Positions 3,777 to 56,702 of a stretch of DNA of 64,000 bases are shown piece by piece. Location: assembly GCA_964452935.1 (NCBI GenBank), contig CAYVNO010000001.1, positions 25,537-89,536 on the forward strand, written 5' to 3'. The notes under the pieces are model-generated. The model was given only the letters and a program-made list of their open reading frames with translations. It made no database searches and was not told where the DNA came from. Position 1 is the stretch's first letter. Every line of letters starts with the position of its first letter. Both the position numbers and the translations under genes were made by a program. This stretch comes from an uncultured Methanosarcinales archaeon (GTDB lineage: Archaea; Nanobdellota; Nanobdellia; Woesearchaeales; DSVV01).

Positions 3777-3827
3777 GGTAATCTTTATATAGTAGTGTAA
3801 CTTCCTAGGAGTAAGTGGGGGGATAGT

Positions 3828-4460: not shown

Positions 4461-4504
4461 GAACTATTTGCCTTTAATGGTTGATAGGAGGGTGGAGGAA
4501 AAGA

Positions 4505-5155: not shown

Positions 5156-5156
5156 A

Positions 5157-6017: not shown

Positions 6018-6060
6018 TAATCCTTATTTAATGGATTAATGGTTACGGAGGATGAATAAA

Positions 6061-6375: not shown

Positions 6376-6376
6376 A

Positions 6377-6396
6377 GTGTTAAGCAAGCTTAACAC
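6377..6396 (+). terminator. Perfect palindromic hairpin immediately after the L12 stop
   Basis: The sequence gtgttaagc-aa-gcttaacac has 9-nt inverted arms and is followed by tttgagcc. Confidence 0.4.
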
Positions 6397-6485
6397 TTTG
6401 AGCCTCCCCATATTTACTGTAACATGGGATTGGCCCGCCCCGACAACTGATTGATCACCTAGCAGAATTGACCAATAAGTGATTT

Positions 6486-6510
6486 GGTGTTTCTAAACAC
6501 CTTTTTTGTT
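6486..6510 (+). terminator. Hairpin plus T-run (intrinsic-terminator-like) at the end of the L1-L10-L12 operon
   Basis: The stem-loop ggtgttt-cta-aacacc is followed by ttttttgtttt. Confidence 0.45.
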
Positions 6511-6524
6511 TTCAACGATAGTAT

Positions 6525-7433: not shown

Positions 7434-7438
7434 AAGAA

Positions 7439-7618
7439 TTATAATTTCTCCATGAAGCTACATTTGCCACATGTTCTTCTGTTTTTGTGTTCTGCCATGA
7501 ATACGCCAGCACCACATTTTGGACAAGGTTTATTCTTTCTTACTGCTTTTTCTCCCTCTACTTTGTATGTTGTCCATATTTGAGAAGGTTTTTTCTCTGC
7601 TTTTTTCTTTTTTCCCAT
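7439..7618 (-). CDS. rps27ae: 30S ribosomal protein S27ae (eS31), C4 zinc ribbon
   Basis: This 59-aa ORF is absent from the ORF track because it is below 60 aa. Manual translation gives MGKKKKAEKKPSQIWTTYKVEGEKAVRKNKPCPKCGAGVFMAEHKNRRTCGKCSFMEKL, which contains CPKCG...CGKC. It has a GGAGGTGA SD and sits immediately downstream of S24e, the conserved pairing. Confidence 0.8.
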   Translation of the reverse strand: MGKKKKAEKKPSQIWTTYKVEGEKAVRKNKPCPKCGAGVFMAEHKNRRTCGKCSFMEKL

Positions 7619-7620
7619 TT

Positions 7621-7639
7621 AATTCACCTCCGGTGAATT
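7621..7639 (-). promoter_or_regulatory. Palindromic element embedding the Shine-Dalgarno of rps27ae
   Basis: The plus-strand sequence aattcacc-tcc-ggtgaatt has an 8-bp stem. On the mRNA the GGAGGUGA SD lies in the loop and 3' arm, and the start codon is 4 nt downstream. Confidence 0.4.
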
Positions 7640-7682
7640 CTAATTTTCACGTTTCGCGAAAATTTAATTTGTCTTTTTATTT

Positions 7683-8159
7683 TTATTCACCTTTTGGTTC
7701 TTCCTTTGGTTTCTCTTCCTTCTTCTCTTCAGGCTTTACTTCTTCTTTTGGTGTCTCTGCTGGTTTTTCCTCTGCTTTTGGTTCTTCTTTCTCTTCAGGC
7801 TTTACTTCTTCTTTTGGTGTCTCTTCGGGCTTCACTTCTTCTTTTGGTTTAGGTGCTTCTGTCTTTTCTTCCTTCTTCTCTTGTTTTGTATGTTTTTTTA
7901 TTAGTGTTTCTAACTCAAGTGTTTTCATTGCTTTTTCGTCTTTATAGACGTGACAAATTACTTTTGCTTTTTTTGAACCATATCTTTGGTAAATATGTCT
8001 GATAACCACTAAATTAGGATCTGCAGAAACTTTTTTTGCAACTAATTCTTTTAATTCTAACCTTGAAGGGGTTTTTCCTTCAAAATATGCCATTGCACTC
8101 ACTCTTTGTCTTGATAAGAGTGGTGTGTCTTTCTTTTTTAGAATCTCTATGTCTTTCAT
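7683..8159 (-). CDS. rps24e: 30S ribosomal protein S24e with an unusual C-terminal K/P/E-rich repeat tail
   Basis: The N-terminal ~100 aa, MKDIEILKKKDTPLLSRQRVSAMAYFEGKTPSRLELKELVAKKVSADPNLVVIRHIYQRYGSKKAKVICHVY..., match S24e. The C-terminal ~60 aa are (EEVKPEE/KPKEE)n repeats, encoded by DNA tandem repeats at about 7683-7870. Confidence 0.8.
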   Translation of the reverse strand: MKDIEILKKKDTPLLSRQRVSAMAYFEGKTPSRLELKELVAKKVSADPNLVVIRHIYQRYGSKKAKVICHVYKDEKAMKTLELETLIKKHTKQEKKEEKTEAPKPKEEVKPEETPKEEVKPEEKEEPKAEEKPAETPKEEVKPEEKKEEKPKEEPKGE

Positions 8160-8170
8160 TTATATCACCA

Positions 8171-8359
8171 TTATCTCGCTTTTATAGCGTATTCTCCGTT
8201 AACATTAATTCCTATCTTTTGTGAAATCATTGATTTTTCTGTATTGATGATATTCACTCTTCCTTGCCAGTTGGTTGAGAATTGTTTTGATTTACAAATT
8301 GGGCATGTGTCTCCGTCAACAAATACCTTGCATTTTTTACATACTTTTTTCTTTGCCAT
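8171..8359 (-). CDS. spt4: Transcription elongation factor Spt4 / RNA polymerase subunit E''
   Basis: MAKKKVCKKCKVFVDGDTCPICKSKQFSTNWQGRVNIINTEKSMISQKIGINVNGEYAIKAR carries a C4 zinc ribbon and the Spt4 NGN-binding region. It lies between rpoE' and S24e, as in the conserved archaeal cluster. Confidence 0.8.
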   Translation of the reverse strand: MAKKKVCKKCKVFVDGDTCPICKSKQFSTNWQGRVNIINTEKSMISQKIGINVNGEYAIKAR

Positions 8360-8361
8360 TT

Positions 8362-8380
8362 AATTTACCTCCGGTAAATT
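8362..8380 (-). promoter_or_regulatory. Palindromic element embedding the Shine-Dalgarno of spt4 (paralogous to 7621-7639)
   Basis: The sequence aatttacc-tcc-ggtaaatt is the same architecture as the rps27ae element, with compensatory changes that preserve the 8-bp stem. Confidence 0.4.
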
Positions 8381-8465
8381 CCAAATTCCACTTTGTAGAA
8401 TTTGATTTCCCTCCGGAAAATTGTAAAATTTCACTGCGTAAAATTTTTAATTACGTCTTGAAAAT

Positions 8466-9041
8466 TTATTTACCTTTCTTTTTAGTAGCAGGTTTGCCTG
8501 CTTTTTTGTTTTTTTCTTCAATCATCCATTCAGGTTTTCCTAAACCTGTTTGTCTCATTGTTAATCCTAATTTGGGATTAGTTGGATCTTTGTAACTGAT
8601 TGCAATAACTCTTGCTCTGCAGTTATCTCCAACTTTAAGTGATCTCTTTGTTTCTTTTCCTAAAAGAACTTTTTCTTTTGAGAAACTTACAAAATCATCC
8701 ATTGTTTGTGAAACATGAATCATTCCTTCTATTGGACCAATTGACATAAATGCTCCAAAGTCTGCGATATCTTTGATTTTTCCAAGAACAACTTCTTGTA
8801 GTTCAGGTTTAAAATTTAGTATCTCAAACTTAGCTTCATAGTATGGAGATCCATCTCCAGGAATTATTGTTCCATCTTGAATTTTAATTACCTTACTTAC
8901 ATCAATAACAATGCCCATCTCTTTTGAGATGTATCCTTCGTACTTCTTTTTTATTTGCTTTATTACTGCTGCATTCAGGTCTAATCCAAATAGATCTGGT
9001 GTTACTCTGATATGATCTTTTATTGTTGTTCTATAGTACAT
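8466..9041 (-). CDS. rpoE: DNA-directed RNA polymerase subunit E' (Rpo7), S1 domain
   Basis: MYYRTTIKDHIRVTPDLFG...IPGDGSPYYEAKFEILNFKPELQEVVLGKI...GMIHVSQTMDDFVSF...VGDNCRARVIAIS is typical of Rpo7/E'. Confidence 0.8.
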   Translation of the reverse strand: MYYRTTIKDHIRVTPDLFGLDLNAAVIKQIKKKYEGYISKEMGIVIDVSKVIKIQDGTIIPGDGSPYYEAKFEILNFKPELQEVVLGKIKDIADFGAFMSIGPIEGMIHVSQTMDDFVSFSKEKVLLGKETKRSLKVGDNCRARVIAISYKDPTNPKLGLTMRQTGLGKPEWMIEEKNKKAGKPATKKKGK

Positions 9042-13421: not shown

Positions 13422-13776
13422 TGTTTTTGAATGCGTTTGCTTCAAGTTTTGTTTTAGCTTTATGACATTCTTTGCATAATGTTCTTAGGTTTGATTTATT
13501 AAATGGGTTGATTTTCCCTCTTACTGGGATTATATGGTCAATGTCTAATTTAGATTTTCTAAATCTTTTTTTACATATGTTGCATTTGTATTTATCTCTT
13601 CTTAGAATGGCTTTTCTTACGAAATACCAAGAGTGGTCTTCATTGAATGTGTTCATGCACTCTTCTGAGCAGTAGTTTCTTCTAGTTTTTGGAACTATGT
13701 TTTCACAGTTTCTACATATCTTATTTCCGTTTAGGTCTATCTTGTTTTCATAGTCTTTTATTCTTGGAAAGCGCAT
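13414..13776 (-). CDS. HNH endonuclease
   Basis: The motif KYKCNICKK...DIDHIIPVRGKINPFNKSNLRTLCKECHKAK is an HNH motif with zinc-binding Cys pairs. An N-terminal CRNC...CSEEC provides an extra zinc ribbon. Confidence 0.75.
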   Translation of the reverse strand: MRFPRIKDYENKIDLNGNKICRNCENIVPKTRRNYCSEECMNTFNEDHSWYFVRKAILRRDKYKCNICKKRFRKSKLDIDHIIPVRGKINPFNKSNLRTLCKECHKAKTKLEANAFKNIT

Positions 13777-13794
13777 GGAAATATTGTAATTTGC

Positions 13795-14475
13795 TTGTTT
13801 TTATGTTTTTTGATGGTTAAATTTATATATCAATTATATGTAATTCTTTGTATGTTAATTGCTTTATCATTATCAGCTATTGCTTTGTTAATAATGTTCT
13901 TGTTATATTGGAAATTCTATTTTCTTAGGGATCCAATCCGAGCTATACCTGCTGATGAGAATTTAGTTGTTAGTCCTGCTGATGGTCGAGTTAGTAGAAT
14001 AATTAGGTTTGGTGGGAAAAAGCTAGAGATTGACAAGGGGTTATTGGGAAGAATAAAGACAATGACTAATGATGTTGCAAAGAAAGGTTATCTAATAAAT
14101 ATTGTTATGACTCCGTTAGATGTTCATTATCAAAGATCTCCTATAAGTGGGCAGGTTGTTAATATAAATTATAAAAAAGGTAAATTTAGGAATGCGATGT
14201 TGGATTCTAAATCTTTGAGATGTTTGAGGAATGAGAATAACCAGATATTAATCAAAGGAAAAATAAAAGCAAAAGTAATACAGATTGCTGGTGTGTTAGC
14301 AAGAAGAATCAAATGTCATGTTAGAAAAAAAGACAATCTTTTAAAAGGACAAAGACTAGGATTAATTAATCTAGGAAGTCAGGTGTGTTTAATAATACCT
14401 GAGATAAAAAAATTGAATATTAAAGAAGGCCAGTATGTTTATGGTGGAACAACTGTTGTAGGTGAGATTAAATGA
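13795..14475 (+). CDS. psd: Archaetidylserine (phosphatidylserine) decarboxylase, short archaeal type
   Basis: The protein has an N-terminal TM segment, a RDPxR...VVSPADGRV motif and an LGSQ autocleavage-like site. It sits adjacent to pssA. Confidence 0.7.
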   Translation: MFLCFLMVKFIYQLYVILCMLIALSLSAIALLIMFLLYWKFYFLRDPIRAIPADENLVVSPADGRVSRIIRFGGKKLEIDKGLLGRIKTMTNDVAKKGYLINIVMTPLDVHYQRSPISGQVVNINYKKGKFRNAMLDSKSLRCLRNENNQILIKGKIKAKVIQIAGVLARRIKCHVRKKDNLLKGQRLGLINLGSQVCLIIPEIKKLNIKEGQYVYGGTTVVGEIK

Positions 14476-44864: not shown

Positions 44865-45521
44865 TTATTCTGTCTCTGTTAGGTTTAGATACCCTTTATC
44901 ACTCCATATAAGAACTCCCCTATCATATAATTCCTTGATTACTGGGTCGCTTTTATTGATATTTGTTTTTGTTATACTTATGAGTTTTATGCTATCTATG
45001 TCTAATAATGGGGATAGATCTGTAACAGGTGTGCTACGGAAGCTGACTTCTTCTAGTTGTTGCATACATACTAGAACTGAGATATCTGATACTTTGGTTT
45101 TTGCTAGGTCTAGTGCTTTGAGATTTGTTAATCTACCAAGACATGATATGTTGTCTATTTTACTGAACCCATCTAATGATAGTCCTGTTAGCTCTGTCAT
45201 GTCCATTACCTGATATAATGCTTTGCTCCCTAATTGATTAGAAAGTCTTTTGAATTTATTATGGCTTGAGCTATATATAACTGGGCCGTAATGATGCAGC
45301 GTGCTATGGTTTCGTGTTACTGTTCTTATTTCTATTAAATGGTTAGTTTTGTTTTCGATATCTGTGATATTTATTGAGCATATATCGTACTTCTTACCAA
45401 AAATTATTTCAGAGAATTTAGGTGCCATAAATGATGCAAAACCTGCTATTATTAAGGAGAATATTAATGCTAGAACAGCTATAATAATAAGTATTATTCT
45501 GAATTTAGCTTTTTTATCCAT
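44865..45521 (-). CDS. Leucine-rich repeat (LRR) protein with an N-terminal membrane anchor
   Basis: There is an N-terminal TM segment. LTGLSLDGFSKIDNISCLGRLTNLKALDLAKTKVSDISVL shows LxxLxLxxN-type repeats. Confidence 0.55.
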   Translation of the reverse strand: MDKKAKFRIILIIIAVLALIFSLIIAGFASFMAPKFSEIIFGKKYDICSINITDIENKTNHLIEIRTVTRNHSTLHHYGPVIYSSSHNKFKRLSNQLGSKALYQVMDMTELTGLSLDGFSKIDNISCLGRLTNLKALDLAKTKVSDISVLVCMQQLEEVSFRSTPVTDLSPLLDIDSIKLISITKTNINKSDPVIKELYDRGVLIWSDKGYLNLTETE

Positions 45522-45575: not shown

Positions 45576-46676
45576 ATGGCAGTTACTAGTGCTCAGAAAT
45601 TTAAGATGAAGAAGTTTATCAAAGAGTTGTCTAAACATAGGGGTAGACATACTGAGTTAGTTAGTGTTTATGTTCCTGCAGGGTACGAGATTACTAAGAT
45701 TATTAATCATTTATCTCAGGAGCAAGGGACAGCAACTAATATTAAATCTACTGCTACTAGGAAAAATGTTATTGATGCTCTTGAAAGAATGATACAACAT
45801 TTGAGGTTGTATAAGAAAACGCCTGAGAACGGACTTGTTGCTTTTTCAGGAAATGTGGCTGAGAGAGAGGGACAGAGTGATGTTCAAGTTTGGAGTCTAG
45901 AACCTCCTGTACCAATGAATCAGAGATTATATAGGTGTGATAAACAGTTTATTTTAGATCCTTTAATTGATATTTGTGAGACAAAAGAAGCTTATGGTTT
46001 GATTGTTATGGATAGAAGGGATGCAAATATTGCTTTACTTCGTGGAAAGGCAATTATTCCTTTAGTTAAAACACACTCAGAAGTTCCTGGAAAGTTCCGA
46101 GCTGGAGGTCAGAGTGCTCAACGTTTTGCACGATTAAGAGAAGGTGCTGCAAAAGATCATTATAAAAAGGTTGCAGAGTATGTTAAAGAACAGTTTTTGC
46201 ATATGAAAGATTTGAAAGGTATTCTAGTTGGTGGTCCTGGTCCGACAAAGTATGATTTTGTTGAAGGGAATTATATTACAGATCAGTTAAAGCAGAAAAT
46301 AATTGCAATAAAAGATTTATCATATACAGAAGAGTTTGGTTTGCAGGAATTGTTAGATAAATCTCAGGATGTTTTGGCAGATGAAGAGGTTGCCGATGAG
46401 AAGAAGTTAATGCAAAAGTTTTTTCAGTTTTTATCAACAAAGCCGGGAATGGTTTCTTATGGTGAGAAAGAGGTCAAACATTTTTTAGAGACAGGAACTG
46501 TTGATACTCTTTTGTTATCTGAAGCTTTGGAAGATGAAGAGATTGAAGAGTTTGAAGAAAAGGCAAAAGAGATGGGTAGTGAGGTTAAAATTATTTCTGT
46601 AGAAACAAGAGAAGGTGTTCAGTTAAGAGATATGGGAAAAATAGCAGCAATTCTTAGGTATGATACTAGTCATTAG
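45576..46676 (+). CDS. prf1: Peptide chain release factor aRF1
   Basis: The NIKS motif (TATNIKS) and the GGQ motif (FRAGGQSAQRFARLRE) are present. The start is taken at MAVTSAQ, and the ORF-track N-terminus is probably an over-extension. Confidence 0.85.
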   Translation: MAVTSAQKFKMKKFIKELSKHRGRHTELVSVYVPAGYEITKIINHLSQEQGTATNIKSTATRKNVIDALERMIQHLRLYKKTPENGLVAFSGNVAEREGQSDVQVWSLEPPVPMNQRLYRCDKQFILDPLIDICETKEAYGLIVMDRRDANIALLRGKAIIPLVKTHSEVPGKFRAGGQSAQRFARLREGAAKDHYKKVAEYVKEQFLHMKDLKGILVGGPGPTKYDFVEGNYITDQLKQKIIAIKDLSYTEEFGLQELLDKSQDVLADEEVADEKKLMQKFFQFLSTKPGMVSYGEKEVKHFLETGTVDTLLLSEALEDEEIEEFEEKAKEMGSEVKIISVETREGVQLRDMGKIAAILRYDTSH

Positions 46677-47719
46677 AATAATTTTCCTGGTGATAAAAGT
46701 CTAGATCTTCTTGAGTCACTTAGCTCTCTTTTTGTTCTACCTTGGTCATAGAATGCTTTTACAATTTCTTGTGTTAATCTGTTTCCTATTTGTGGTACTT
46801 CTTCTCTCATATAACCTGCTCTGAATCCTTGAAATGCTGGGAGTTGTTTTATGTCTTCTGTTAATCTGCCATCTTCTCTGTTTGTGATGCAACATTTATG
46901 GGTTCTTTCATAACTTGCTCCATAATAGTCATAGAAAGCGTCTTCAGAAGCTACTTCTATTGCTTCTCGAATTGAGGTTGCTTCATGAACAGTTATTGTG
47001 TTCTGTCCTGCCATACGAATCTCTAGTTCTGATAAAGGACAGATGTTCATTGGGTTTTGAGATAGTCTGAATTGAATTAGTGTGTATAAATTATCTGTGT
47101 TATGTTCATAGATTAGTGTTACCCTTCCTGTTGTTTTGTCGTTTTCTTGTTCAAAAAATCTGTATTTTATTGGATGGATCGATAACCATGATCCAATGTT
47201 TGTTCCGCCATGTTCTGTTCCTACTGGAATTCTTCTTGTGTTTCTTAGGATTTCTTCAGCTGTGTCATTGCTTTGTACTCCCACAATTTGAGTAATAATT
47301 TCATCATGAGGGTGGGTGTGAGTTGGGATTGTTGTAAGAGCAGCATAACCATTTTCTAATCCTGATTGATATTCAACTCTAACTCCTTGTTCATTATATA
47401 CTAAATGGCTGTGGAGAGGTTTATGTCCTTCAATTAGTGTTAGATTCCCTAGTGCAATACCTCTCTCTTTCTTTTCTCTTTCTTGTTCTAATGAGAGAGT
47501 ATGTAAAGCTTTTTGATCTTGTCTGAGAATTGCATCTAGATTTCTTAGGTCAGTAATTGTGTATATGTTTATTTGTGAGGTCATATATGGAGGTAATCTA
47601 AGTGTTTTTATAAATGTTATTCTGGCTGGTTTCTGAAGGATAGACAGTTGCTCCTTGCGGAGCAACCGCTCATAACCTCTTGTGAGTCGTTTATGAGGGT
47701 GATTCGTATTTGCCTTCAA
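46673..47719 (-). CDS. Hypothetical protein (348 aa) of atypical composition
   Basis: No recognised motif was found. The protein is R/T/H-rich. Its 5' region overlaps the repeat element at 47641-47701, so the true start may be the internal MTSQINIY. Confidence 0.3.
   Translation of the reverse strand: MKANTNHPHKRLTRGYERLLRKEQLSILQKPARITFIKTLRLPPYMTSQINIYTITDLRNLDAILRQDQKALHTLSLEQEREKKERGIALGNLTLIEGHKPLHSHLVYNEQGVRVEYQSGLENGYAALTTIPTHTHPHDEIITQIVGVQSNDTAEEILRNTRRIPVGTEHGGTNIGSWLSIHPIKYRFFEQENDKTTGRVTLIYEHNTDNLYTLIQFRLSQNPMNICPLSELEIRMAGQNTITVHEATSIREAIEVASEDAFYDYYGASYERTHKCCITNREDGRLTEDIKQLPAFQGFRAGYMREEVPQIGNRLTQEIVKAFYDQGRTKRELSDSRRSRLLSPGKLF
47641..47701 (+). repeat. Structured repeat element, copy 1: a GC hairpin plus a conserved 30-nt core hairpin
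   Basis: Stem gttgctcc-ttgc-ggagcaac is followed by ctcataacctcttgtgagtcgtttatgagggtg, in which ctcataa and ttatgag are inverted arms. The core matches 48371-48400. Confidence 0.55.
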
Positions 47720-48317
47720 TTGTATTTGTTATGATTTTTGAATCATATTCCTTTATACTATGGCCAATAAGATAGTCTTTCTTTATTTTATTCATTCTTT
47801 TATTTGTCTTTTCATAATTAGAATTTCTAACATAATGGCCAATGGTTGCTCCAATGATTGGTGTTGCTATGGCTGTTCCTCCTACTGCCATTCCTGCAAC
47901 TTTTAATGTTTGATTTGGTTCTATTCCATATTCTAATTCTAAAATAAGTGTCCCAAATATAGTAAGGGTTGTTGCAGCTAGTCCTAACTGTATTCCTAAT
48001 ACATGCATTACAGCGTAGCACATTCCTAAAGTGTCCTCAAATGTTTCACAGAAGCTTGTTTTTGACTTTAATTTGTTTATTTCTTTTTCTAAATTGAGTG
48101 GATCTTCATTCGGTATCTTAAATACATATGTTCCTTGATATTCATTACTTAATCCTTGTGGGAATAGATAAATCTGAGAATCATTTGTGTCTTTTCTGTA
48201 CATTTTTCCGATCTTTTTGTATCCTTCTCCTTTTAATCGCTCTGATAATTCTTTCTTGTGTTCTCTACTCTTTCTAGCTAATGTACAAATTGTTTCAAGT
48301 TGTGGTGTTTCATTCAT
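47691..48317 (-). CDS. Hypothetical protein with a Gly/Ala/Thr-rich hydrophobic C-terminal half (membrane-associated)
   Basis: The 208-aa protein is bracketed by the two repeat-element copies. Confidence 0.35.
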   Translation of the reverse strand: MNETPQLETICTLARKSREHKKELSERLKGEGYKKIGKMYRKDTNDSQIYLFPQGLSNEYQGTYVFKIPNEDPLNLEKEINKLKSKTSFCETFEDTLGMCYAVMHVLGIQLGLAATTLTIFGTLILELEYGIEPNQTLKVAGMAVGGTAIATPIIGATIGHYVRNSNYEKTNKRMNKIKKDYLIGHSIKEYDSKIITNTIEGKYESPS

Positions 48318-48338
48318 TTTATTTACCTGTTAAAGTTA

Positions 48339-48409
48339 CTCCTGCTGCAACTAATGCAGCAAGAGAACTGCTCATAACTCTTGTGAGTCGTTTATGAGTG
48401 TTTTTTTAG
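48339..48409 (+). repeat. Structured repeat element, copy 2: a GC hairpin plus the conserved core, followed by a T7 run
   Basis: Stem tgctgca-actaa-tgcagca is followed by ctcataactcttgtgagtcgtttatgagtg and then ttttttt. Confidence 0.55.
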
Positions 48410-48414
48410 TCATT

Positions 48415-48798
48415 TTATTCAAACGTTACCCTATATGTTTCTCCTTTGTAGGTTCCATTAATTGATAGTCCTGCGATTGATTCATGATCTAATGTTTGTT
48501 CGGGGCTTAGTTGTAGACCTCTAACTTTACTCCATGATTCATTTCTTATTTCTGCACCAAGTAGGATTCCATGTTCAAATTCACGTCTTGTATCACCAAC
48601 TAAGTCAGAATCTTTCCCTTGATATATCATGTCTCTACAATAACAATTTCCTTCATAAAATCCTTCAGCTTTTATCTGTTTTAGAATTCCCCAGATTGTT
48701 TCTAAGTTATCTGCTGTTTTTTGATCTACCTTGAAGAAATTTTCATTTCTTTTCATCTGTTCTTGGACACAATCATACAATGTTGTTTTTTCTTCCAT
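48415..48798 (-). CDS. Hypothetical protein
   Basis: The start is taken at MEEKTTLY. No motif was recognised. Composition is D/E/G/R-rich and atypical for the region. Confidence 0.3.
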   Translation of the reverse strand: MEEKTTLYDCVQEQMKRNENFFKVDQKTADNLETIWGILKQIKAEGFYEGNCYCRDMIYQGKDSDLVGDTRREFEHGILLGAEIRNESWSKVRGLQLSPEQTLDHESIAGLSINGTYKGETYRVTFE

Positions 48799-48799
48799 T

Positions 48800-49138
48800 T
48801 TATATTCCTCTACAGTGTTGTGGATCAATTATTGGTGTTTCTACTCTTTCCATATAATCTCCTTGTCTGTTTTCTGCGTAGACTACGACTGAATCGTCTT
48901 TAAAATCAATTATTTGTGATAATGTTAGTTGTCCACTTAGGTTTCCAAATTTTCCTCTGCCTTCTGCAAGGCATGTGCAGATTCCTTTTTCATTATACAC
49001 AGGATCTTCCATGCTACAAGAGATTGTTTGTGGATTAATGTTGACTTTGTCCTCTTGGCTACCACAACATGCAGGTAAGAGTAGTAAAGTTGCAGAATAA
49101 AGTGCAGTTAATGTTTTGACTGTACTCATTTTTATCAC
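48800..49138 (-). CDS. Small secreted lipoprotein, hypothetical
   Basis: LLLLPACCG is lipobox-like, preceded by a hydrophobic signal segment. There are several Cys in the mature part. Confidence 0.4.
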   Translation of the reverse strand: MIKMSTVKTLTALYSATLLLLPACCGSQEDKVNINPQTISCSMEDPVYNEKGICTCLAEGRGKFGNLSGQLTLSQIIDFKDDSVVVYAENRQGDYMERVETPIIDPQHCRGI

Positions 49139-49644
49139 TTGTAAACCTTTACTTCAATTCCTTCTTCTCTCACTCTCTTTGTAATATCTTGTTTGATTTC
49201 ATCACCAACATTTTGGTAATCAACTTTAACTCCTCTTTCTAAGTCAAGATCATCTCTATCTTTCTCATCTCCTTCAGGCATTGAGAAATATAACTTGACT
49301 TCAAATGGGTGCCCAAGTGAATCGTGTTTTGTGTTTCTAACAGTTGATTTAATGTAGTTCATGATTTTATCAAGTCCTTTTGGATCTTCTTGGTTTGGTG
49401 CAAAGAAATCTGGTTCTCTAACTTCATCTCCTGCATTCATAATTTCTAGATATGTTTCTACTACATTATCTCCTTTTTTATGTATTCTTTCATACACACA
49501 AAGAATCTCTTTTGCTGTTTTTGTAGGTGTGTCATCTGCAACATACTCTGCTTGTTCTAACTCATATTCTGGTGATTCTTCACGAAGGCTATCTGCTCCT
49601 TCTTCATCACCGTCTAACAATCTTTCAAATAATGTTTTACCCAT
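49135..49644 (-). CDS. Acidic hypothetical protein
   Basis: The protein is D/E-rich. It overlaps the downstream lipoprotein gene by 4 nt, indicating an operon. Confidence 0.3.
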   Translation of the reverse strand: MGKTLFERLLDGDEEGADSLREESPEYELEQAEYVADDTPTKTAKEILCVYERIHKKGDNVVETYLEIMNAGDEVREPDFFAPNQEDPKGLDKIMNYIKSTVRNTKHDSLGHPFEVKLYFSMPEGDEKDRDDLDLERGVKVDYQNVGDEIKQDITKRVREEGIEVKVYK

Positions 49645-49699: not shown

Positions 49700-49756
49700 C
49701 TTTCTGATATTATTGATATCAGTGATATCAAAAATCGAAAGCTTTTTATATATAAA
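49700..49756 (+). promoter_or_regulatory. Promoter/operator region of the AbrB-like regulator, with a palindrome plus tgatatc direct repeats and then a TATA box
   Basis: The sequence ctgatat-tattg-atatcag is followed by tgatatcagtgatatc. The TATA box ctttttatatataaag lies ~20-30 nt upstream of the coding start. Confidence 0.35.
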
Positions 49757-49771: not shown

Positions 49772-50686
49772 ATGAAACGGAAACTAATCAAACAGGGTGG
49801 TGGTGGGGTCACATTCTATGTGCCAAAGAAATGGGTTGATAAACAAGGCTTGAAACCTGGTGATGAGATTGATGTAATTGAGGAAGATGATAAATTAATT
49901 GTTCTAAATGAAGCGATGACTCAGAATAAGACTGTTGAGATTGATATTAAGGGTATGGATCATACAGCTCTTTTGAAAACAGTTATCTCTTATTATGAGA
50001 TGGGTTATTCTGAGATTACTATTATTTCAGATAATGGAATGGTTTATATTCCAACTTTATTAAAAGAAAAGAAGATAACAGTAAAAGAAGAGGTTGAAAG
50101 ATTAGTAAATAGGCTTATTGGTTTTGAGTTGATTAGTTTTGAGTCAAATAAATATGTTTTGAAAGATATTGCTATGACTTCTCCTACTGAGTTTGATAAT
50201 GTTCTAAGGAGAATCTTTTATTTATTATTAGAATTTCAAAATTATGTAAAAGAGACAGTTGATAATAAGAATAAAGTCAAAGATTATAATGAACATCATG
50301 ATAGTATTGCTAAGTTTATTAGTTTTTGTATTAGGTTATTGAATTTAAGTATGGATAAAACTAATGTTGAGAAGAATAATTTACATACAATACTAACATT
50401 GTTGGATAAGTATACTGATGCGTTAAGATGGCTATTATACGATTACACTGCTAGTGGAATAAAAGATAAAAAATCAATCTTTGCTATAATGGATCATTTT
50501 AGAATGTATTATAATTTATTTTATAATTATGATATAAAATTAATAAATGAGTTAGATAGAGAAAGAATTAAGTTAAGAAAAACATTGAAATCAGATGAAG
50601 CAGTTATTCACTTTTCTTCTGTTTTAGAATATATCATGGCAATGATTAGACCAACTATTTGTTTAGTTGAGAGTTCCAAGTCTTAA
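49772..50686 (+). CDS. Transcriptional regulator with an N-terminal AbrB/SpoVT swapped-hairpin domain and a PhoU-like helical C-domain
   Basis: MKRKLIKQGGGGVTFYVPKKWVDKQGLKPGDEIDVIEEDDKLIVL is a typical AbrB/MazE-type domain. The C-terminal ~220 aa are helical and PhoU-like. Confidence 0.5.
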   Translation: MKRKLIKQGGGGVTFYVPKKWVDKQGLKPGDEIDVIEEDDKLIVLNEAMTQNKTVEIDIKGMDHTALLKTVISYYEMGYSEITIISDNGMVYIPTLLKEKKITVKEEVERLVNRLIGFELISFESNKYVLKDIAMTSPTEFDNVLRRIFYLLLEFQNYVKETVDNKNKVKDYNEHHDSIAKFISFCIRLLNLSMDKTNVEKNNLHTILTLLDKYTDALRWLLYDYTASGIKDKKSIFAIMDHFRMYYNLFYNYDIKLINELDRERIKLRKTLKSDEAVIHFSSVLEYIMAMIRPTICLVESSKS

Positions 50687-52852
50687 TCCTCTGTCAACTC
50701 TATGTTTTAGTGTATATATTTGTTGTAACATTCTATCCATTTGTGTTGGGTTTTCTAGATTTCTTCTGTGCATAACTGAAACGTATTTTGTTGATGCATT
50801 AACCATTCCTGAATCTGCCCATTGAAACATTTCTCTGTGTTTTTCTCTGTCTGTTCTGAAATTGTTATCATGTTCTGATCTCATTGAAACATATACATCG
50901 ACATATTTTCTAACTTGGTCTTTTGTTAGGTTGAAATCTGATTCAGATAGGAACCATGTTACTTCTTCTATCTCTTTCCCCCATGAAATTAATCCATAAT
51001 CAACAATATTTCCTTTAACAATATTTCCTTTTTCTCCTGTTCTTATTGATCCTGGTTTCCAATCTCCGTGTATAATACTTAATCTTCCTTCGATTGCATA
51101 TTGTTGGAATGTTTCATTTGCTCTTTCTATATCTCCGACAAGATATGAACCGATTTCTGATTTAATTACACTATGCACTTTACTTGATGAACTTGTTGGT
51201 ATAACAACTGCTTCATAATGTGGTGTGTCTCCTCTGAGATGTCTAGATGTTCCTAAAACTGTTTCTTTATCTTTTAGTGCTGCTTTTGTTGCGTTTTTAT
51301 GGAATAAGCCCATTAAAAATAGGTTGTGTTTTATGTACCTGTCAATATTAAATGTTCCGTTGGGATTGAATGGGATATAACCTGTTTTTGCATATCCTGA
51401 TGTTTGGTTTGCTACATTGCTAAGTACAAGTAATGAGCTGTTATTTAGTTCTATTAATTCTTTTAATGATGGCATAAACTCTTCAAATTCTCCAAGATCC
51501 CATTTGTAGGCTGTTTGTGCTTCTAGTTTGTTTAATTCAATTGCTGCTTGTTTTGCGACGAGTTCCGGAGATGATAAAACAAGTCCTGAGTTGTTTCCTG
51601 TTGCTATTGGGAAATATGTATCCATCTCAACAATTGCGTCAATGTGTCCTTCTTCTGTTTCTGGGAATATTTCACTTATTCTTCTACGAGCAGATTCTAG
51701 TATTGCTGTTTTGTTTGCTCTTCTAACAACAGGTTCCATATTGCTTAAGATTGGTTTGTAATTGAACTCTTCTCTTTTCATCATTTCAAATTCAGAGTTC
51801 ATTAACTGGTCTATGAACCAGCCATAATATACTAATCTCATAAACTCTTTATTTGATTCATCTGTTCTTCTTGATTCTTCTCCAACATCTTCATCTCCCT
51901 CTTTTATTGCTGCAAATATGTCTTTTCCTAATTCAATTAGTTCATAGTCAGTTAGATCATGTTCTTTTAATAGTCTTAGGATTAATGGAGAATTTTCAGT
52001 TGCGTTTTGAACATCTTCTATTTCAAAAGGTAGGTCTCTTGGCATGTCTTCTGGCTCAATGTATGCTTCTCCATATCCTCTGTCGAAGTCAAATTGGTTT
52101 AGGTGGTCTGCTGTTAATTTTTCTTTAATTTCTTTAGCAATTCTTTCATATGCACCTTGGAATAATGTATCGTGAAGTCTCAATAATCTTGCTGGCATTC
52201 CTTGGTATGCTTCTCCATATACTTTGTGATCTTCTTTTCCTGTTTCTAGATAGTCAACAACTCTATTTACTAGTTTTACTCTGTCATTATTTCTTTCTAT
52301 TGTTCCTCCTTCTATACCTTGTTCTACTGCATTTCTTATTTCAGATAATTCTCTTTCCATAATTATGTCAAAACATTTTCTTCCTATGCTGTCAGATTTA
52401 TTACAGTCTTTATGTCTTGGGTCGTTGCTTAATAAAGGGTATGTCCATATACTTTCAGTACAGAAGGGATCTATTCTCATGCTTATTGCATCAATTGTTC
52501 TTATTAGTCTTCCACAGATGGTTTCTAGATCTTTTTCTGTTTCTCCTGTTAGTTGTTCAGCTAAAGGAGTACATCCACAATCTGTTGAATCATATTCGGA
52601 ATAATTTCTTGGGTGGTTGTGGTAATCTGCTCCTCCTTTATTTTTAATTCCAAATAATTCTAATCCATATAACTCACATATTTTATCATATTCAAATGCT
52701 ATTCTGTCGGCTATCTGAGTTTGTTGGTTTGCATCAGGTTCTGAGAAGATTCCGTGTCTATGTAAATGATCCTGTCTAAAATAATTAGTAATTCTATCTC
52801 CTAAGTCATCCATTAAATCTACTAATTCTTCTGCGCTTGGTTGATTACTCAT
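50663..52852 (-). CDS. Large (729 aa) protein with a C-terminal aminoglycoside-phosphotransferase/protein-kinase-like (APH) domain
   Basis: LSIIHGDWKPGSI is the Brenner-type HGDxxxxN catalytic loop, and IVDYG is a DFG-equivalent. The N-terminal ~450 aa are unassigned, acidic and Cys-containing. Confidence 0.5.
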   Translation of the reverse strand: MSNQPSAEELVDLMDDLGDRITNYFRQDHLHRHGIFSEPDANQQTQIADRIAFEYDKICELYGLELFGIKNKGGADYHNHPRNYSEYDSTDCGCTPLAEQLTGETEKDLETICGRLIRTIDAISMRIDPFCTESIWTYPLLSNDPRHKDCNKSDSIGRKCFDIIMERELSEIRNAVEQGIEGGTIERNNDRVKLVNRVVDYLETGKEDHKVYGEAYQGMPARLLRLHDTLFQGAYERIAKEIKEKLTADHLNQFDFDRGYGEAYIEPEDMPRDLPFEIEDVQNATENSPLILRLLKEHDLTDYELIELGKDIFAAIKEGDEDVGEESRRTDESNKEFMRLVYYGWFIDQLMNSEFEMMKREEFNYKPILSNMEPVVRRANKTAILESARRRISEIFPETEEGHIDAIVEMDTYFPIATGNNSGLVLSSPELVAKQAAIELNKLEAQTAYKWDLGEFEEFMPSLKELIELNNSSLLVLSNVANQTSGYAKTGYIPFNPNGTFNIDRYIKHNLFLMGLFHKNATKAALKDKETVLGTSRHLRGDTPHYEAVVIPTSSSSKVHSVIKSEIGSYLVGDIERANETFQQYAIEGRLSIIHGDWKPGSIRTGEKGNIVKGNIVDYGLISWGKEIEEVTWFLSESDFNLTKDQVRKYVDVYVSMRSEHDNNFRTDREKHREMFQWADSGMVNASTKYVSVMHRRNLENPTQMDRMLQQIYTLKHRVDRGLRLGTLN

Positions 52853-52986
52853 TCTTTTTCCTCGAATAGTTTTTTTAATGCAAACTCAATTGCGTGTGAT
52901 TTGTTTCTGAAAACACCGGAACGCATGCTATCTTGAATCTTTACAACAATTTCTTCGTCCACTGTTATGCTTAGTTTGTGTTTCAT
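52849..52986 (-). CDS. Ribbon-helix-helix (CopG/Arc-like) small DNA-binding protein, 45 aa
   Basis: This ORF was not in the track. MKHKLSITVDEEIVVKIQDSMRSGVFRNKSHAIEFALKKLFEEKE has a beta-strand followed by two helices. It overlaps both neighbours by ATGA. It is a paralog of the ORF at 55318-55455. Confidence 0.6.
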   Translation of the reverse strand: MKHKLSITVDEEIVVKIQDSMRSGVFRNKSHAIEFALKKLFEEKE

Positions 52987-53909
52987 CTTGGTTGATTCTC
53001 CCTGTAATTATCTCTTTCAGCTCTTGCTTTCATTTGTGGTGTTTGTAATTGTATTTCTAGATTGGAATAATCTTCTGAGGATTTTTTAATTATTATGCCT
53101 TGGAATCCATTCGGTTTTGGGAATGTTATTAAGTCACGTACATCATCAACAGAATAATCATAAATACATCTCATTAAGTATAAACAATGTCCTGCTGTTT
53201 CGGCAGTTATTCTTATACCATTTATATCTCCAATATCATTTACACTTCTCAATGAAGGATTTCTTTGAATCCATGCATAAACACTTTCTGGTGTTTTTAC
53301 TCTAGTTTCTATATCTATTACTTTGTCTCTTTTATGCCTCTCTTTTAAGAATTGCCTCCATTTCTCAAGCTCTTCTGGATCAAGACTATTCTCTTCTATA
53401 TGTTTGAGAATTTCTTCATATAATTTTGGGTCTTGTTCTATAATTTCTTTTCTTGTGAGATATCTTTTCGGCTTAAACTCTTGGAATCCTAATTGTTCTA
53501 CTGTTTCTTCTAGTTCTGGCATTTCTTCGCCAATAAAAAATGCTCTTCTATTATTTAGGTAGTGAGGAATATATAGTTCTAGGTCGTGCTGTTGTGTACC
53601 TGTAAATCGTGGTCTTCCTTCTTCAAAATCAACATAGTAGAACATTGTTCTATTGTCTTCTCCTTGTTCTACTATGTATCCCACTCCAGTATGATTAACC
53701 TTTTTTACACGGTACATTGTTAGGTGATGTCCTACTGTACCAATGTTTAGTGCGACAACTTTTCCTTGTAATGAAGATTGAATTCCTTCATATTTTTCTA
53801 CTCTTCTAAATCCTAGTTCATGGAGGGCTCTACGACTGTTTCTAATTCTTTGTTTAACACTGTCACTCATTGCTCTTCTCATTATTTTATTGTGTAGTGG
53901 TTCTGTCAT
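52983..53909 (-). CDS. RelA/SpoT-like (RSH synthetase-fold) nucleotidyltransferase, small-alarmone-synthetase-like
   Basis: C-terminal SVNDIGDINGIRITAETAGHCLYLMRCIYDY...DLITFPKPNGFQGIIIKK...LEIQLQTPQM aligns with the RelP/RelQ synthetase core (D..G.R....; PK.NGYQSLH; VEIQIRT). Consensus Y (to F) and R (to Q) positions are substituted. Confidence 0.6.
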   Translation of the reverse strand: MTEPLHNKIMRRAMSDSVKQRIRNSRRALHELGFRRVEKYEGIQSSLQGKVVALNIGTVGHHLTMYRVKKVNHTGVGYIVEQGEDNRTMFYYVDFEEGRPRFTGTQQHDLELYIPHYLNNRRAFFIGEEMPELEETVEQLGFQEFKPKRYLTRKEIIEQDPKLYEEILKHIEENSLDPEELEKWRQFLKERHKRDKVIDIETRVKTPESVYAWIQRNPSLRSVNDIGDINGIRITAETAGHCLYLMRCIYDYSVDDVRDLITFPKPNGFQGIIIKKSSEDYSNLEIQLQTPQMKARAERDNYRENQPR

Positions 53910-53984
53910 TTATCCTATTCTATACTACTCATATATAAATGTTTCTATTTGTTACTATTGATTGGTAGTTATATTGTTCTTTAT

Positions 53985-54055: not shown

Positions 54056-55057
54056 ATGGTATATATTTACAAGAAAACAATACATGGAAAGAACTATTAT
54101 TATCTTAGGGTATCTAAGAGGGTTAATGGTAAATTAGTGGTTAAAGATGTTGCTTATTTGGGTAATGATATATCTAAGATTGAAAGTAAGTTAAATAATT
54201 TAGTGGAGTATAAGGATGAGATAAGAAAAGGTCATAGAATCATAAAGAAATTTATACAATCAAATTATTTCTTACAGAAAGTAAAAAAATTGAAATTAAA
54301 GAATATTAATTATTTAGATAAAGGAATGTTAGAACAGGTTGAGGCTATAAAATTACATTATAAAAATAATTTTTTAAAATTAGATGAATTAACAAAGAAA
54401 GAGGTCTATAAACATTTTTTAATTGATTTTGCTTTTAATACAACCTCCATAGAAGGTAATACAATCACTCTAGATGAAGCAAATAAACTTTTGAATGAAG
54501 ATATTTTACCAAAAAATAAAACTCTTAGAGAAGTTTATGATTTGCAGAATACTGAAAACACTTTTTTATGGCTTTTAGACGACAAACCTTTGTTTAATGA
54601 AATGTTAATCACTGATATTCATGATAGATTGCTAGAGAAAATTGATGTAAGAAAAGGCTATAGGACTCAAGATATTAAAGTTTTCAAGTCAAAATTTGAG
54701 GCTTCTCCTGTTAAATACTTAAAGATTGATATGAGGGTTTTAATGAAGTGGTTTAAAGATAATAAAAAGTTACATCCTCTTGTTTTAGTTGGATTATTGC
54801 ATCATAAGTTAGAGAAGATACATCCGTTTGCAGATGGAAACGGAAGAACAGGGAGAATGTTGATGAATTATATTTTAATGAAAATGGGTTTTCCTCCTTT
54901 AATTATATCTAAAAAAAGAAGATCAGATTATTTGGCTGCTTTAAGGAATGCAGATAATTGTGATTTAAATGATAATGATTCTAGTTATTATAAAAAGTTG
55001 ATAACTTATTTAGCTGAGGAGATGGTTTCTTCTTATTGGTCTAATTTTAATGTTTAA
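54056..55057 (+). CDS. fic: Fic/Doc family protein (putative AMPylase)
   Basis: HPFADGNGRTGR matches the canonical Fic motif HPFx[DE]GNGRxxR. Confidence 0.9.
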   Translation: MVYIYKKTIHGKNYYYLRVSKRVNGKLVVKDVAYLGNDISKIESKLNNLVEYKDEIRKGHRIIKKFIQSNYFLQKVKKLKLKNINYLDKGMLEQVEAIKLHYKNNFLKLDELTKKEVYKHFLIDFAFNTTSIEGNTITLDEANKLLNEDILPKNKTLREVYDLQNTENTFLWLLDDKPLFNEMLITDIHDRLLEKIDVRKGYRTQDIKVFKSKFEASPVKYLKIDMRVLMKWFKDNKKLHPLVLVGLLHHKLEKIHPFADGNGRTGRMLMNYILMKMGFPPLIISKKRRSDYLAALRNADNCDLNDNDSSYYKKLITYLAEEMVSSYWSNFNV

Positions 55058-55059
55058 TT

Positions 55060-55097
55060 TACCCTTTACAATTGAAAAATGTGAATGTAAAGGGTAA
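55060..55097 (+). repeat. Second copy of the palindromic 38-bp element, immediately downstream of the Fic stop
   Basis: The sequence taccctttaca-attgaaaaatgtgaa-tgtaaagggtaa is about 90% identical to 53985-54022. Confidence 0.6.
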
Positions 55098-55317
55098 ATA
55101 TGATTCTATGTGTTTTTCTTCTAAAAACAAAACCTTTAAATACTAGTACATACTGAGTAATGCTTAATGCATATCATTAAGATATGATATGTAATCGTAA
55201 GCAGGTTTAGAACGAGTAAGAACGCCAACAATTTCGCCAAAATTGTAGTTCAGGGCAGGGTGCGGTAGCATCCTTCCAATTTTTTTCATAGGGGGTGCAA
55301 GATAGGAGTTGTGATAG

Positions 55318-55455
55318 ATGAAAGAACGTATTACAATAACAATTGACAAGGACCTGTTAAATTGGTTAGATAGTAAAATTGAAGATAAAACTTTTGCAAA
55401 TAGAAGTCACGGGTTTGAATTCTTAATTAAGAAAAGGATGGATGGTGAAAAATGA
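55318..55455 (+). CDS. Ribbon-helix-helix small protein, 45 aa, paralog of 52849-52986
   Basis: This ORF was not in the track. The protein is MKERITITIDKDLLNWLDSKIEDKTFANRSHGFEFLIKKRMDGEK. An AGGAG SD lies upstream. Its TGA overlaps the ATG of the beta-CASP gene. Confidence 0.6.
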   Translation: MKERITITIDKDLLNWLDSKIEDKTFANRSHGFEFLIKKRMDGEK

Positions 55456-56702
55456 AGATCACTTTCCATGGTGCAGCAAAAGAGGTAGGAAGAAGTTGTA
55501 TTGAAATTAATAATAAATATCTATTAGATGCAGGGTTAAAAATATGTGAAGAAGGGTCAGAGTATCCAACAGAGTTATTTCTTGATGGAATACAAGCAGT
55601 GTTTTTAAGTCATGCACACCTCGATCATACTGGAGCGTTGCCTTTATTTAATCATGATGGGTTGCATTGTAATATCTTTTGTACAAAAGCTACAAGAGAA
55701 CTTACAAAAATATTATTAAAGGACTCTTTGCATATTGCGTTATTAGAAACTAGGCATCCAGGTTATGGTGAAGATAATATCTTTAATGTTTTAGATTATA
55801 TGAAGTTTGTTAGATATAATAAAATAAATAAGTTTGGTAATATGAGGTTTGTTTTTTTAGATGCTGGACATATTCCTGGTTCTGCTTCTGTTTTATTAGA
55901 GATTGATGGGAAATCTGTTTTATACACAGGAGATATTAATCATAATGAAACTTTCCTATTGAATGGTTTAAATTATAATGTAAAAAATGTTGATGTGATG
56001 ATTACTGAGGCAACTTATGGGGATAGAAATCATCCTAATAGAAGTAAACAAAAGAAACAGTTCATAAATATGATAAAAGAATGTTTGAGAAATGATGGAA
56101 GTGTGTTGATTCCAGCGTTTGCTGTTGGTAGGGCACAAGAGATTATTCTAATGTTAGCAAGAGAAAACATCAGAGCGCCGATTTATTTAGATGGGATGGC
56201 CAAAAAGGTTTCTAATTTGTTCTTAGATTTAAGGCAGTATGTAAAAAGTGAGAAGAGTTTAAGGAATGCGTTGAGGAAAGTAAAATACATTAAATCTTGG
56301 AAACAAAGAAAAGAGATAATAAAACGGAAAGGGATTTTTATAACAACTTCTGGAATGTTAGACGGTGGACCAATAATGGATTATATGAAATACCTGTATC
56401 ATGATCCTAAGAATTGTATTTTACTAACAGGTTATCAAGCAGAAGGTTCTAACGGAAGGTTATTATTAGAAGAGGGAGCTGTGTTTATTGACGGGATGAG
56501 GTTAAGGTGGAGAGGTTATGTCCAGAAGTTTGATTTTAGTGCACATTCAGGAAGAAAGGAACTTGTTAAGTTTATTAAAAATGTTAATCCAAAAGTTTTG
56601 ATTATAAATCACTGTGATGAAGAAGCAGGAGAGTCAATTAAGAACGAATTCAAAAACAAAAAAGTGTTTTTACCGCATTTAGATGAAACTATAGATTTAT
56701 GA
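55452..56702 (+). CDS. Metallo-beta-lactamase/beta-CASP family ribonuclease (aCPSF2-like)
   Basis: HAHLDHTGALP is the MBL His motif. The ~416-aa size and later His/Asp motifs are typical of short archaeal beta-CASP RNases. Confidence 0.7.
   Translation: MKITFHGAAKEVGRSCIEINNKYLLDAGLKICEEGSEYPTELFLDGIQAVFLSHAHLDHTGALPLFNHDGLHCNIFCTKATRELTKILLKDSLHIALLETRHPGYGEDNIFNVLDYMKFVRYNKINKFGNMRFVFLDAGHIPGSASVLLEIDGKSVLYTGDINHNETFLLNGLNYNVKNVDVMITEATYGDRNHPNRSKQKKQFINMIKECLRNDGSVLIPAFAVGRAQEIILMLARENIRAPIYLDGMAKKVSNLFLDLRQYVKSEKSLRNALRKVKYIKSWKQRKEIIKRKGIFITTSGMLDGGPIMDYMKYLYHDPKNCILLTGYQAEGSNGRLLLEEGAVFIDGMRLRWRGYVQKFDFSAHSGRKELVKFIKNVNPKVLIINHCDEEAGESIKNEFKNKKVFLPHLDETIDL

Follow-up and report, generated by a model that had tools for sequence, protein, structure and literature searches.

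A 64,000-nucleotide stretch of an archaeal contig (CAYVNO010000001.1 of assembly GCA_964452935.1, positions 25,537 to 89,536; hereafter the window) carries on its minus strand three overlapping genes that encode a RelA/SpoT homologue (RSH; gene 1), a small ribbon-helix-helix (RHH) protein (gene 2) and a kinase-like protein (gene 3) and, converging on the last of these, a plus-strand gene for an AbrB-like protein (Table 1). The window is assigned to the chromosome of a DPANN archaeon of Woesearchaeota-like type, and named relatives of the locus occur solely in metagenome-assembled genomes of Candidatus Woesearchaeota and Nanoarchaeota. A preliminary description of this DNA had proposed that genes 1 to 3 form a novel toxin-antitoxin (TA) or defence module around a toxic small alarmone synthetase (toxSAS). 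The three minus-strand open reading frames (ORFs; 308, 45 and 729 amino acids) and the two ATGA junctions between them are present as it reported. Judged from the gene neighbourhoods of related loci, however, the conserved core of the system is the kinase together with the AbrB-type protein, to which the RHH gene has been added in one sub-lineage and the RSH gene here alone.

Table 1. Features of the RSH-RHH-kinase operon and of the adjoining AbrB-like gene, in window coordinates.
Feature	Coordinates	Strand	Basis or remark
Gene 1, RSH, 308 aa	52983..53909	-	ORF call
Gene 2, RHH protein, 45 aa	52849..52986	-	ORF call
Gene 3, kinase-like protein, 729 aa	50663..52852	-	ORF call
Gene 3, N-terminal region, aa 1-380	51713..52852	-	acidic (isoelectric point, pI, 4.7); no homologue found
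Gene 3, kinase-like domain, aa ~385-729	50663..51712	-	family alignment, invariant columns
TTTATATA box	53932..53939	-	read from the sequence; 22 bp upstream of the gene 1 ATG
Perfect palindrome TTACCCTTTACA-N15-TGTAAAGGGTAA	53984..54022	.	between the divergent promoters of the RSH operon and the Fic gene
AbrB-like gene	49772..50686	+	Pfam MazE_antitoxin 1.1e-6; TIGR01439 AbrB

Genes 1 to 3 are taken to be real because the same proteins recur, identical, on contigs of independent metagenome assemblies; the 308- and 729-codon ORFs are moreover far longer than chance would allow in DNA of 33 % GC. Four-base stop/start overlaps join gene 1 to gene 2 (52983-52986) and gene 2 to gene 3 (52849-52852), the junction sequences being ...caagATGAaa... 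and ...aagaATGAgt.... As these codons overlap and leave no intergenic space for a promoter, the RSH, RHH and kinase genes are read as a single transcription unit, co-transcribed and probably co-translated. The preliminary description had the genes fused by these overlaps. However, 4-bp overlaps, which are common in this compact genome, also join at least six further pairs of same-strand genes in the window, and what they indicate is co-transcription and no special fusion. The TTTATATA box has the layout known from archaeal promoter architecture, and on that ground it is probably the promoter of a leaderless RSH-RHH-kinase transcript. The palindrome, with arms of 12 bp, lies 45 bp upstream of this TATA box and is a candidate operator.

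Gene 1 contains a RelA/SpoT-type synthetase domain, as had been proposed from its motifs. It is matched by Pfam RelA_SpoT (PF04607) over residues 202-298 (46.1 bits, the cut-off being 27; E 6.8e-12) and by the long-RSH model TIGR00691 over residues 150-298 (E 1e-14), and its best relative of solved structure is E. coli RelA (residues 208-348, E 3e-7 to ~1e-6), followed by Rel and RelP. The synthetase domain occupies approximately residues 150-300, its catalytic part being mildly acidic (pI 5.4), and is preceded by a basic orphan region (residues 1-130, pI 9.6) for which our searches returned no match. A single-sequence AlphaFold2 (AF2) model had a predicted local distance difference test score (pLDDT) of 36, too low to be used for the fold or for the N-terminal domain.

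The motifs on which the assignment had been based are found at residues 228 (DINGIR), 264 (PKPNGFQ) and 285 (EIQLQT). Conserved with respect to RelA are RxKxxxS (R202/K204/S208), the Mg-binding Asp (D228 of DINGIR, aligned with DVRAVR of RelA), PKPNG, and the catalytic Glu (E285 of EIQLQT, aligned with EIQIRT). Four positions are changed relative to the E. coli enzyme, namely Tyr to F269, Ser to G271, His to I273 and Arg to Q289, so that NGYQSIH becomes NGFQGII and EIQIRT becomes EIQLQT. Phe269 could stack in place of the Tyr. The His of NGYxSxH and the Arg of EIQIRT are residues that we take to belong to the acceptor site of RelA; a literature search on the EIQIRT motif found nothing. The synthetase core looks divergent but largely intact, with the acceptor side of the pocket altered, and the substitution of the Tyr, His and Arg positions suggests an acceptor other than GDP or GTP.

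A word-index search of 5.8 billion proteins with gene 1 retrieved only the protein itself; the exhaustive HMMER search described below covered the kinase, and remote homologues of gene 1 may be missed. No relatives were found in viral contigs, PHROGs or PADLOC, and tblastn against phages and plasmids returned only RelA/SpoT genes at 24-28 % identity. The occurrence of RSHs among archaea is rare and sporadic (Atkinson et al. 2011, PMC3153485), so that a synthetase-only enzyme is unusual there in itself. No paper linking an RSH to DPANN archaea was encountered, although no effective search was directed at that question. The archaeal divRel proteins, for example that of Methanosarcina acetivorans (PMC3153485), resemble gene 1 in being synthetase-only enzymes with no hydrolase visible nearby; the DPANN lineage, the host-like composition and the operon with a kinase set gene 1 apart from divRel as described.

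The 45-residue product of gene 2 has no Pfam match by itself, and its standing as a minimal RHH protein is secured by transitive homology. It is 52-55 % identical to a 47-residue protein encoded ahead of the closest kinase homologue (loci L003/L004/L008/L010, here called the L003-type lineage), its orthologues match RHH_1 (5.6e-6) and RHH_3 (2.7e-5), and a profile of the four-sequence family matches the RHH of NikR (E 0.006), the antitoxin Rv0298 and CopG. The alignment covers residues 2-40 of 45, with no C-terminal extension. Type II RHH antitoxins bind their toxins through a C-terminal tail, and because 45 residues leave no room for one, a classical antitoxin role is disfavoured; gene 2 is a probable DNA-binding unit alone and a putative autorepressor of the operon. 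Moreover, the RHH gene was found nowhere but in the window and the L003-type lineage, and in the latter it overlaps the start of the kinase gene with no RSH present, a complete VapBC pair lying upstream (L003). The earlier suggestion that the RHH protein is the antitoxin of the RSH is not supported, on both counts.

Comparison with the CopG, Arc and NikR-N repressors shows the same size (CopG also has 45 residues) and a palindrome upstream of the operon, although the palindrome arms, at 27 bp from centre to centre, are wide for the predicted binding of one RHH dimer. A second 45-residue RHH protein, 33 % identical to gene 2, is encoded at 55318..55455 (+) and matches the N-terminal RHH of NikR models; it is ATGA-coupled to a beta-CASP/metallo-beta-lactamase RNase gene in an operon 2.3 kb away (55318-56702). 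As this gene heads an ATGA-coupled operon of its own, small RHH genes look like operon-leading regulators here.

The C-terminus of gene 3 is accepted as a protein-kinase-like domain on the strength of its family alignment. Exhaustive HMMER searching of 1.84 billion representatives yielded a family of 55 representatives, 48 sequences of which were aligned; non-self matches begin at query residue 368 or later and span only residues ~380-725. The word-index search with the 729-residue protein returned only itself, and a profile search of that database with the kinase alignment found five proteins. Eight residues are invariant in the 48 sequences (K434, H518, D597, K599, N610, D618, Y654 and R697) and six are nearly so (G419, E444, G596, G614, R658 and D662). 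The family consensus VxIK ... E ... VIHGDWKxEN ... VDF supplies the beta3 Lys, the alphaC Glu, the catalytic loop and a DFG-like Asp, which correspond in gene 3 to K434, E444, H595-G-D597-W-K599 and D618-Y-G; the previously quoted HGDWK and VDYG lie at residues 595 and 617. The catalytic loop joins the HGD of aminoglycoside phosphotransferases (APH) with the DxKxxN of Hanks-type kinases. The family shares beta3 Lys, alphaC Glu, HGD, the Lys at D+2, the Asn at D+5 and D[FY]G with APH, choline kinases and Hanks-type eukaryotic-like protein kinases (ePKs), but it is set apart from all of them by this mixture of HGD and DxKxxN, by its constant linkage to an AbrB-domain gene and, for the window protein, by the lack of a curated family that covers it above threshold.

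Matches to known kinases are accordingly faint for the window protein and clearer for its relatives. Pfam APH is matched by 6/48 homologues (best E 1.1e-6), whereas gene 3 itself reaches E 0.095 and 12.9 bits, below the 23.2-bit cut-off. The best profile match in the PDB is 3csv, an APH (E 0.05), followed by loops of Aurora, VRK and MKK7, all weak. An AF2 model of the 729-residue protein built from a six-sequence alignment had a mean pLDDT of 43, with blocks of 50-79 in the kinase domain, and the top 50 Foldseek matches of this low-pLDDT model were all to APH(2''), APH(3') or choline kinase, at a weak E of ~1e-2 and template modelling (TM) scores of 0.2-0.3. The APH/kinase-like domain of the preliminary description is upheld by the conserved catalytic residues and by the Pfam matches among homologues, and its C-terminal position stands as well; the unassigned N-terminal region is shorter than the ~450 residues given there, at ~380, since the domain starts near residue 385.

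This N-terminal region is mostly helical in a low-confidence AF2 prediction. It showed no similarity to relative P0003 by BLASTP and received no non-self HMMER match before residue 368, and it is regarded as a putative input or sensor region. Elsewhere in the family the N-terminus contains leucine-rich repeats (LRRs; 11/48), a receiver domain (one sequence) or a Gly/Ala-rich hydrophobic stretch (one sequence), that of the window protein being an orphan, and it is the combination of variable N-termini with a constant catalytic domain that gives these proteins the look of sensor kinases. A 218-residue LRR protein (LRR_4 2e-8) is encoded at 44865-45521 (-), 5 kb from the kinase gene; LRRs are also the commonest N-terminal module of the kinase family. 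The family appears to be restricted to DPANN archaeal contigs, and the kinase domain has no match in phage or plasmid collections, in PADLOC or in PHROGs. One homologous ORF (L010, 3471-4628) turns after about residue 255 into a C-terminus that resembles, by eye, a thermosome (group II chaperonin), and is probably an assembly chimera at a contig end.

The AbrB-like protein has an N-terminal AbrB/SpoVT (MazE-like) DNA-binding domain and a C-terminal domain of ~250 residues, which gave no Pfam, NCBIfam or PDB match; an identity as an AbrB-PhoU regulator was dropped for want of any PhoU match there. Translation is likely to start at the ATG at 49772, which gives the MKRK found in all homologues, rather than at the GTG at 49757. 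In the upstream region (49706-49755) GATAT(C) occurs three times, as GATATtattGATATCagtGATATC, ahead of a TTTTTATATATA box, and these repeats may serve for autoregulation.

Loci of the kinase family were recovered for eight lineages besides that of the window (L003/L004/L008/L010, L005/L006, L007, L009/L011, L012/L013, L014, L015 and L016), with kinases at 27-47 % identity to gene 3. In all eight an AbrB-like homologue (27-49 % identity) is convergent with the kinase gene, either adjoining it or one gene away. The 3' ends of the two genes overlap by 24 bp in the window, 27 bp in L012, 15 bp in L016, 12 bp in L014 and 4 bp in L007, and are separated by 9-10 bp in L015 and L009; where one gene intervenes, it encodes a Cu-oxidase_4 family protein (L003-type) or a His_Phos_1 protein (L005). 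The remaining neighbours differ from locus to locus, which argues for a conserved gene pair and not for residual synteny, and the 64-kb window holds a single copy of each partner. The AbrB-type regulator, formerly listed as mere island context, therefore accompanies the kinase as its conserved partner in all lineages that were examined. An RSH, by contrast, was found within 5-8 kb in none of the eight (tblastn and a six-frame search for E-x-Q-x-[RQK]-T), and no RSH homologue was found with which the three-gene combination could recur elsewhere.

Several of these loci have features of their own. L005 (also L006) has three tandem kinase paralogues at 3062-9020 (469, 510 and 457 residues, the last with the receiver domain), then the His_Phos_1 phosphatase and the convergent AbrB-like gene, with a HisKA/HATPase histidine kinase just upstream, neighbours that have a signalling flavour. 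L007 has two AbrB-like paralogues within 5 kb (1510-2475 and 4189-5175), one of which abuts the 3' end of the kinase gene. L012, the contig with the closest full-length kinase homologue, carries a Fic gene 2 kb upstream of the kinase, whose product is 30 % identical to the Fic protein of the window, and at 13534-14436 a gene for a 300-residue product with Sigma70_r2 and Sigma70_r4, which would be unexpected if the contig is archaeal.

That the RHH-kinase pair is conserved with an overlapping start in the sister lineage could suggest a HipBA-like TA system, in which the kinase is a toxin, the RHH protein its DNA-binding antitoxin or regulator and the RSH a third component, comparable to hipBST; kinase toxins with small DNA-binding partners are known, also in tripartite versions (PMC8262856). 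We regard this as very improbable. No HipA_C signature was found in gene 3 or among the families listed for 47 homologues, nor any other Hip signature; most family members (L005, L007, L009, L012 and L014-L016) are without an RHH gene; large LRR, receiver or membrane N-termini are typical of sensors and not of toxins; and the universal partner is a convergent AbrB-like gene, unlike the arrangement of TA operons. The same neighbourhoods could also mean that there is no functional coupling at all, and that the RSH is an independent gene resembling small alarmone synthetases (SAS) which happens to lie upstream of an RHH-kinase pair, the overlap reflecting genome compaction. The frequency of 4-bp overlaps in the window, the absence of the RSH from all other kinase loci and the occurrence of the RHH-kinase pair alone elsewhere would agree with this. 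It is nevertheless unlikely, as the shared stop/start codons with no promoter space point to co-transcription and probable co-translation, and operon membership in prokaryotes usually means shared function.

We tentatively favour, with a probability of roughly 40 %, the reading of the locus as an RHH-regulated signalling operon in which a conserved sensor-kinase/AbrB pair has been joined by a recruited, lineage-specific pyrophosphokinase. It is supported by the kinase/AbrB pair in eight lineages and by the RHH-kinase pair that occurs in the L003-type lineage with no RSH. According to this model, the N-terminal region of the sensor kinase would take the signal and its kinase domain would phosphorylate a protein target, most likely the AbrB-type DNA-binding partner and possibly the RSH too. 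Phosphorylation of AbrB by Ser/Thr kinases has been described in Bacillus (Kobir et al. 2014, as cited in PMC6333020). Repression of the operon would come from an RHH dimer bound to the upstream palindrome. The RSH would have been a later recruit, placed ahead of an RHH-kinase pair that already existed; it would provide an additional output and, with ATP as donor, would pyrophosphorylate the 3'-OH of an acceptor that is probably not GDP or GTP. Growth or gene expression would thereby come under a control linked to the kinase, and there would be no self-contained addiction module. The domain identities, the operon structure and the conserved gene pair are what the data show, whereas the phosphorylation and binding partners and the product of the RSH belong to the model.

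Several observations weigh against this interpretation. The RSH is a singleton whose link to the kinase is its operon position in one genome, and in the two nearest relatives the place upstream of the (RHH-)kinase is taken by toxin-like genes, namely VapBC (L003) or an MNT-type nucleotidyltransferase (NTase) with HD and Fic genes (L012), a pattern that an RSH acting as a toxin-type cargo gene would fit. Synthetase-only RSHs in small overlapping operons are typical of bacterial toxSAS modules (10.1101/575399). The catalytic loop of gene 3, HGDWKPGS, is followed by an 8-residue insertion that includes a KGNIV-KGNIV tandem duplication (51002-51031, residues 608-617) unique to the window protein, and the canonical catalytic-loop Asn is Ser602 or has moved to N610, depending on where the insertion is placed, so that gene 3 may be catalytically impaired. 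The mixture of APH-like and ePK-like features, with a poor model, would fit a protein and a small-molecule substrate alike.

An extension of the signalling-operon model would be a kinase-gated conflict or growth-control system, in which the sensor kinase, its N-terminal detector being interchangeable (LRR, receiver, membrane or orphan domain in relatives), reports to the AbrB regulator and also switches a non-canonical RSH on or off, the Phe/Ile/Gln pocket of which would point to a substrate other than GDP or GTP. We consider this quite unlikely; if it proved true, DPANN archaea would have their first effector of this kind.

The TA or defence proposal, according to which the 308-residue RSH would act as a toxin, arresting growth by pyrophosphorylating the 3' ends of tRNA or by producing (pp)pApp, and would be neutralised by the RHH protein, by its own N-terminal domain or by kinase phosphorylation in a type VII-like manner, is in our view doubtful. 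In its favour, gene 1 is a synthetase-only RSH that lacks the hydrolase, RSHs being rare and sporadic in archaea (PMC3153485), and its orphan status is typical of fast-evolving conflict genes. Fic, VapBC and MNT-type NTase genes occupy neighbouring or equivalent positions, and the basic N-terminal 130 residues could bind RNA. In addition, the neutralisation of an NTase-fold toxin by a kinase has a precedent in TglT/TakA of M. tuberculosis (Rv1045/Rv1044, PMC7205606), where phosphorylation by the kinase controls the enzyme; that is a two-gene bacterial system with a toxin that is no RSH, and the likeness is conceptual and implies no homology.

Set beside known toxSAS and SAS enzymes (FaRel, FaRel2, PhRel, PhRel2, CapRel and Tas1; Jimmy et al. 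2020, Kurata et al. 2021), gene 1 likewise has a synthetase without a hydrolase and belongs to a small overlapping operon, which is tricistronic as is the FaRel locus (10.1101/575399). It differs from them in being archaeal, in the position of the synthetase domain at the C-terminus behind a 130-150-residue orphan region, in having the long RelA/SpoT enzymes as its nearest relatives, including part of their pre-SYNTH helical region, and in the Phe and Gln that replace the acceptor-stacking Tyr and the EIQIRT Arg. The toxSAS antitoxins named in the sources consulted are SAH hydrolases and complex-forming proteins of the ATfaRel2 type, whereas the operon of the window offers an RHH protein and a kinase. 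No conserved partner gene can be recognised beside the RSH, since the data searched contain no RSH homologue and hence no pair. Among the PDB matches of gene 1 at E <= 10 there is no toxSAS chain, whereas RelA (3e-7), Rel and RelP do match; structures of CapRel and Tas1 are in the PDB.

The substitutions in the pocket do not restore the resemblance. The preliminary description had correctly noted that the consensus Tyr and Arg are replaced (F269 and Q289), and had likened this to toxSAS; yet the acceptor-stacking Tyr is highly conserved in SAS enzymes, FaRel2 in which it is replaced (Y128A) is no longer toxic and no longer labels tRNA, and the toxSAS that target tRNA are not marked by any clear signature in their sequences (Kurata et al., 10.1101/2021.04.30.441581). 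The same authors tie tRNA binding to a basic patch, whereas the catalytic domain of gene 1 is acidic. The absence of PHROG and PADLOC matches, of phage or plasmid relatives beyond the RelA/SpoT level and of a neutralising tail in an RHH protein whose orthologues accompany the kinase, together with the host-like composition of the locus, also argue against a toxin. Of the proposed module, the domains and the operon are upheld; the conserved pairing, the antitoxin role of the RHH protein and the toxSAS likeness find no support.

The setting of the locus is that of an ordinary chromosome segment. Housekeeping genes flank it (aRF1, L37ae, a beta-CASP RNase, a P-type ATPase and ELP3), and its GC content, GC content at third codon positions (GC3) and codon usage equal those of host genes, with GC at ~33 % across the window; neither tRNA genes nor Rfam RNAs were found in these 64 kb. 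On account of this composition and these flanks, and of the lack of phage or plasmid relatives beyond the RelA/SpoT level, there is no sign of recent transfer, and recent horizontal transfer or a genomic island was rejected on GC, GC3 and codon usage. The 'island' with AbrB, Fic and second RHH genes named in the preliminary description is real as a set of neighbours, but not as a region of distinct composition.

The divergent neighbour of the RSH operon, at 54056..55057 (+), encodes a Fic protein with the canonical active-site motif HPFADGNGRTGR and an internal TSIEGN inhibitory-helix motif, and it is probably auto-inhibited. It strongly matches the PADLOC candidate-defence families PDC-S04 (1.8e-36) and SoFic (6e-30), as well as several PHROGs of unknown function. 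The palindrome TTACCCTTTACA-N15-TGTAAAGGGTAA stands on both sides of this gene, a second copy (55057-55099) beginning at the Fic stop codon, 220 bp ahead of the second RHH gene; with the spacer counted in, 46 nt can be compared, and the copies share 87 % identity. No third copy was found in the window at 0-1 mismatch, and the palindrome was absent from the related loci and viral contigs searched. The pair could represent operators or the boundaries of a cassette. On the other side, between aRF1 and the AbrB-like gene, are five co-directional orphan genes (46673-49644, minus strand; 348, 208, 137, 112 and 169 residues) with no Pfam, NCBIfam, PADLOC or PHROG match. The N-terminus of the 112-residue product resembles a lipoprotein signal (...LLLLPACCGSQ), and the 169-, 112- and 137-residue genes recur only on L001, which is the same sequence assembled from another sample.

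Three elements of this locus are new, although all of its domains are of known kinds: a divergent DPANN RSH with an altered acceptor pocket, its unique operonic coupling to a kinase, which has been seen once, and a hitherto unclassified family of kinases accompanied by a strictly conserved AbrB-domain protein. Caution is called for, as the three-gene combination occurs in one genome only and nothing points to toxicity or defence. The locus nonetheless provides a concrete candidate with which to ask whether pyrophosphorylated nucleotides or RNA ends play a role in these reduced symbionts and whether kinases can control such enzymes, and the pair of kinase and AbrB-domain protein may represent a simple signalling pathway in DPANN archaea.

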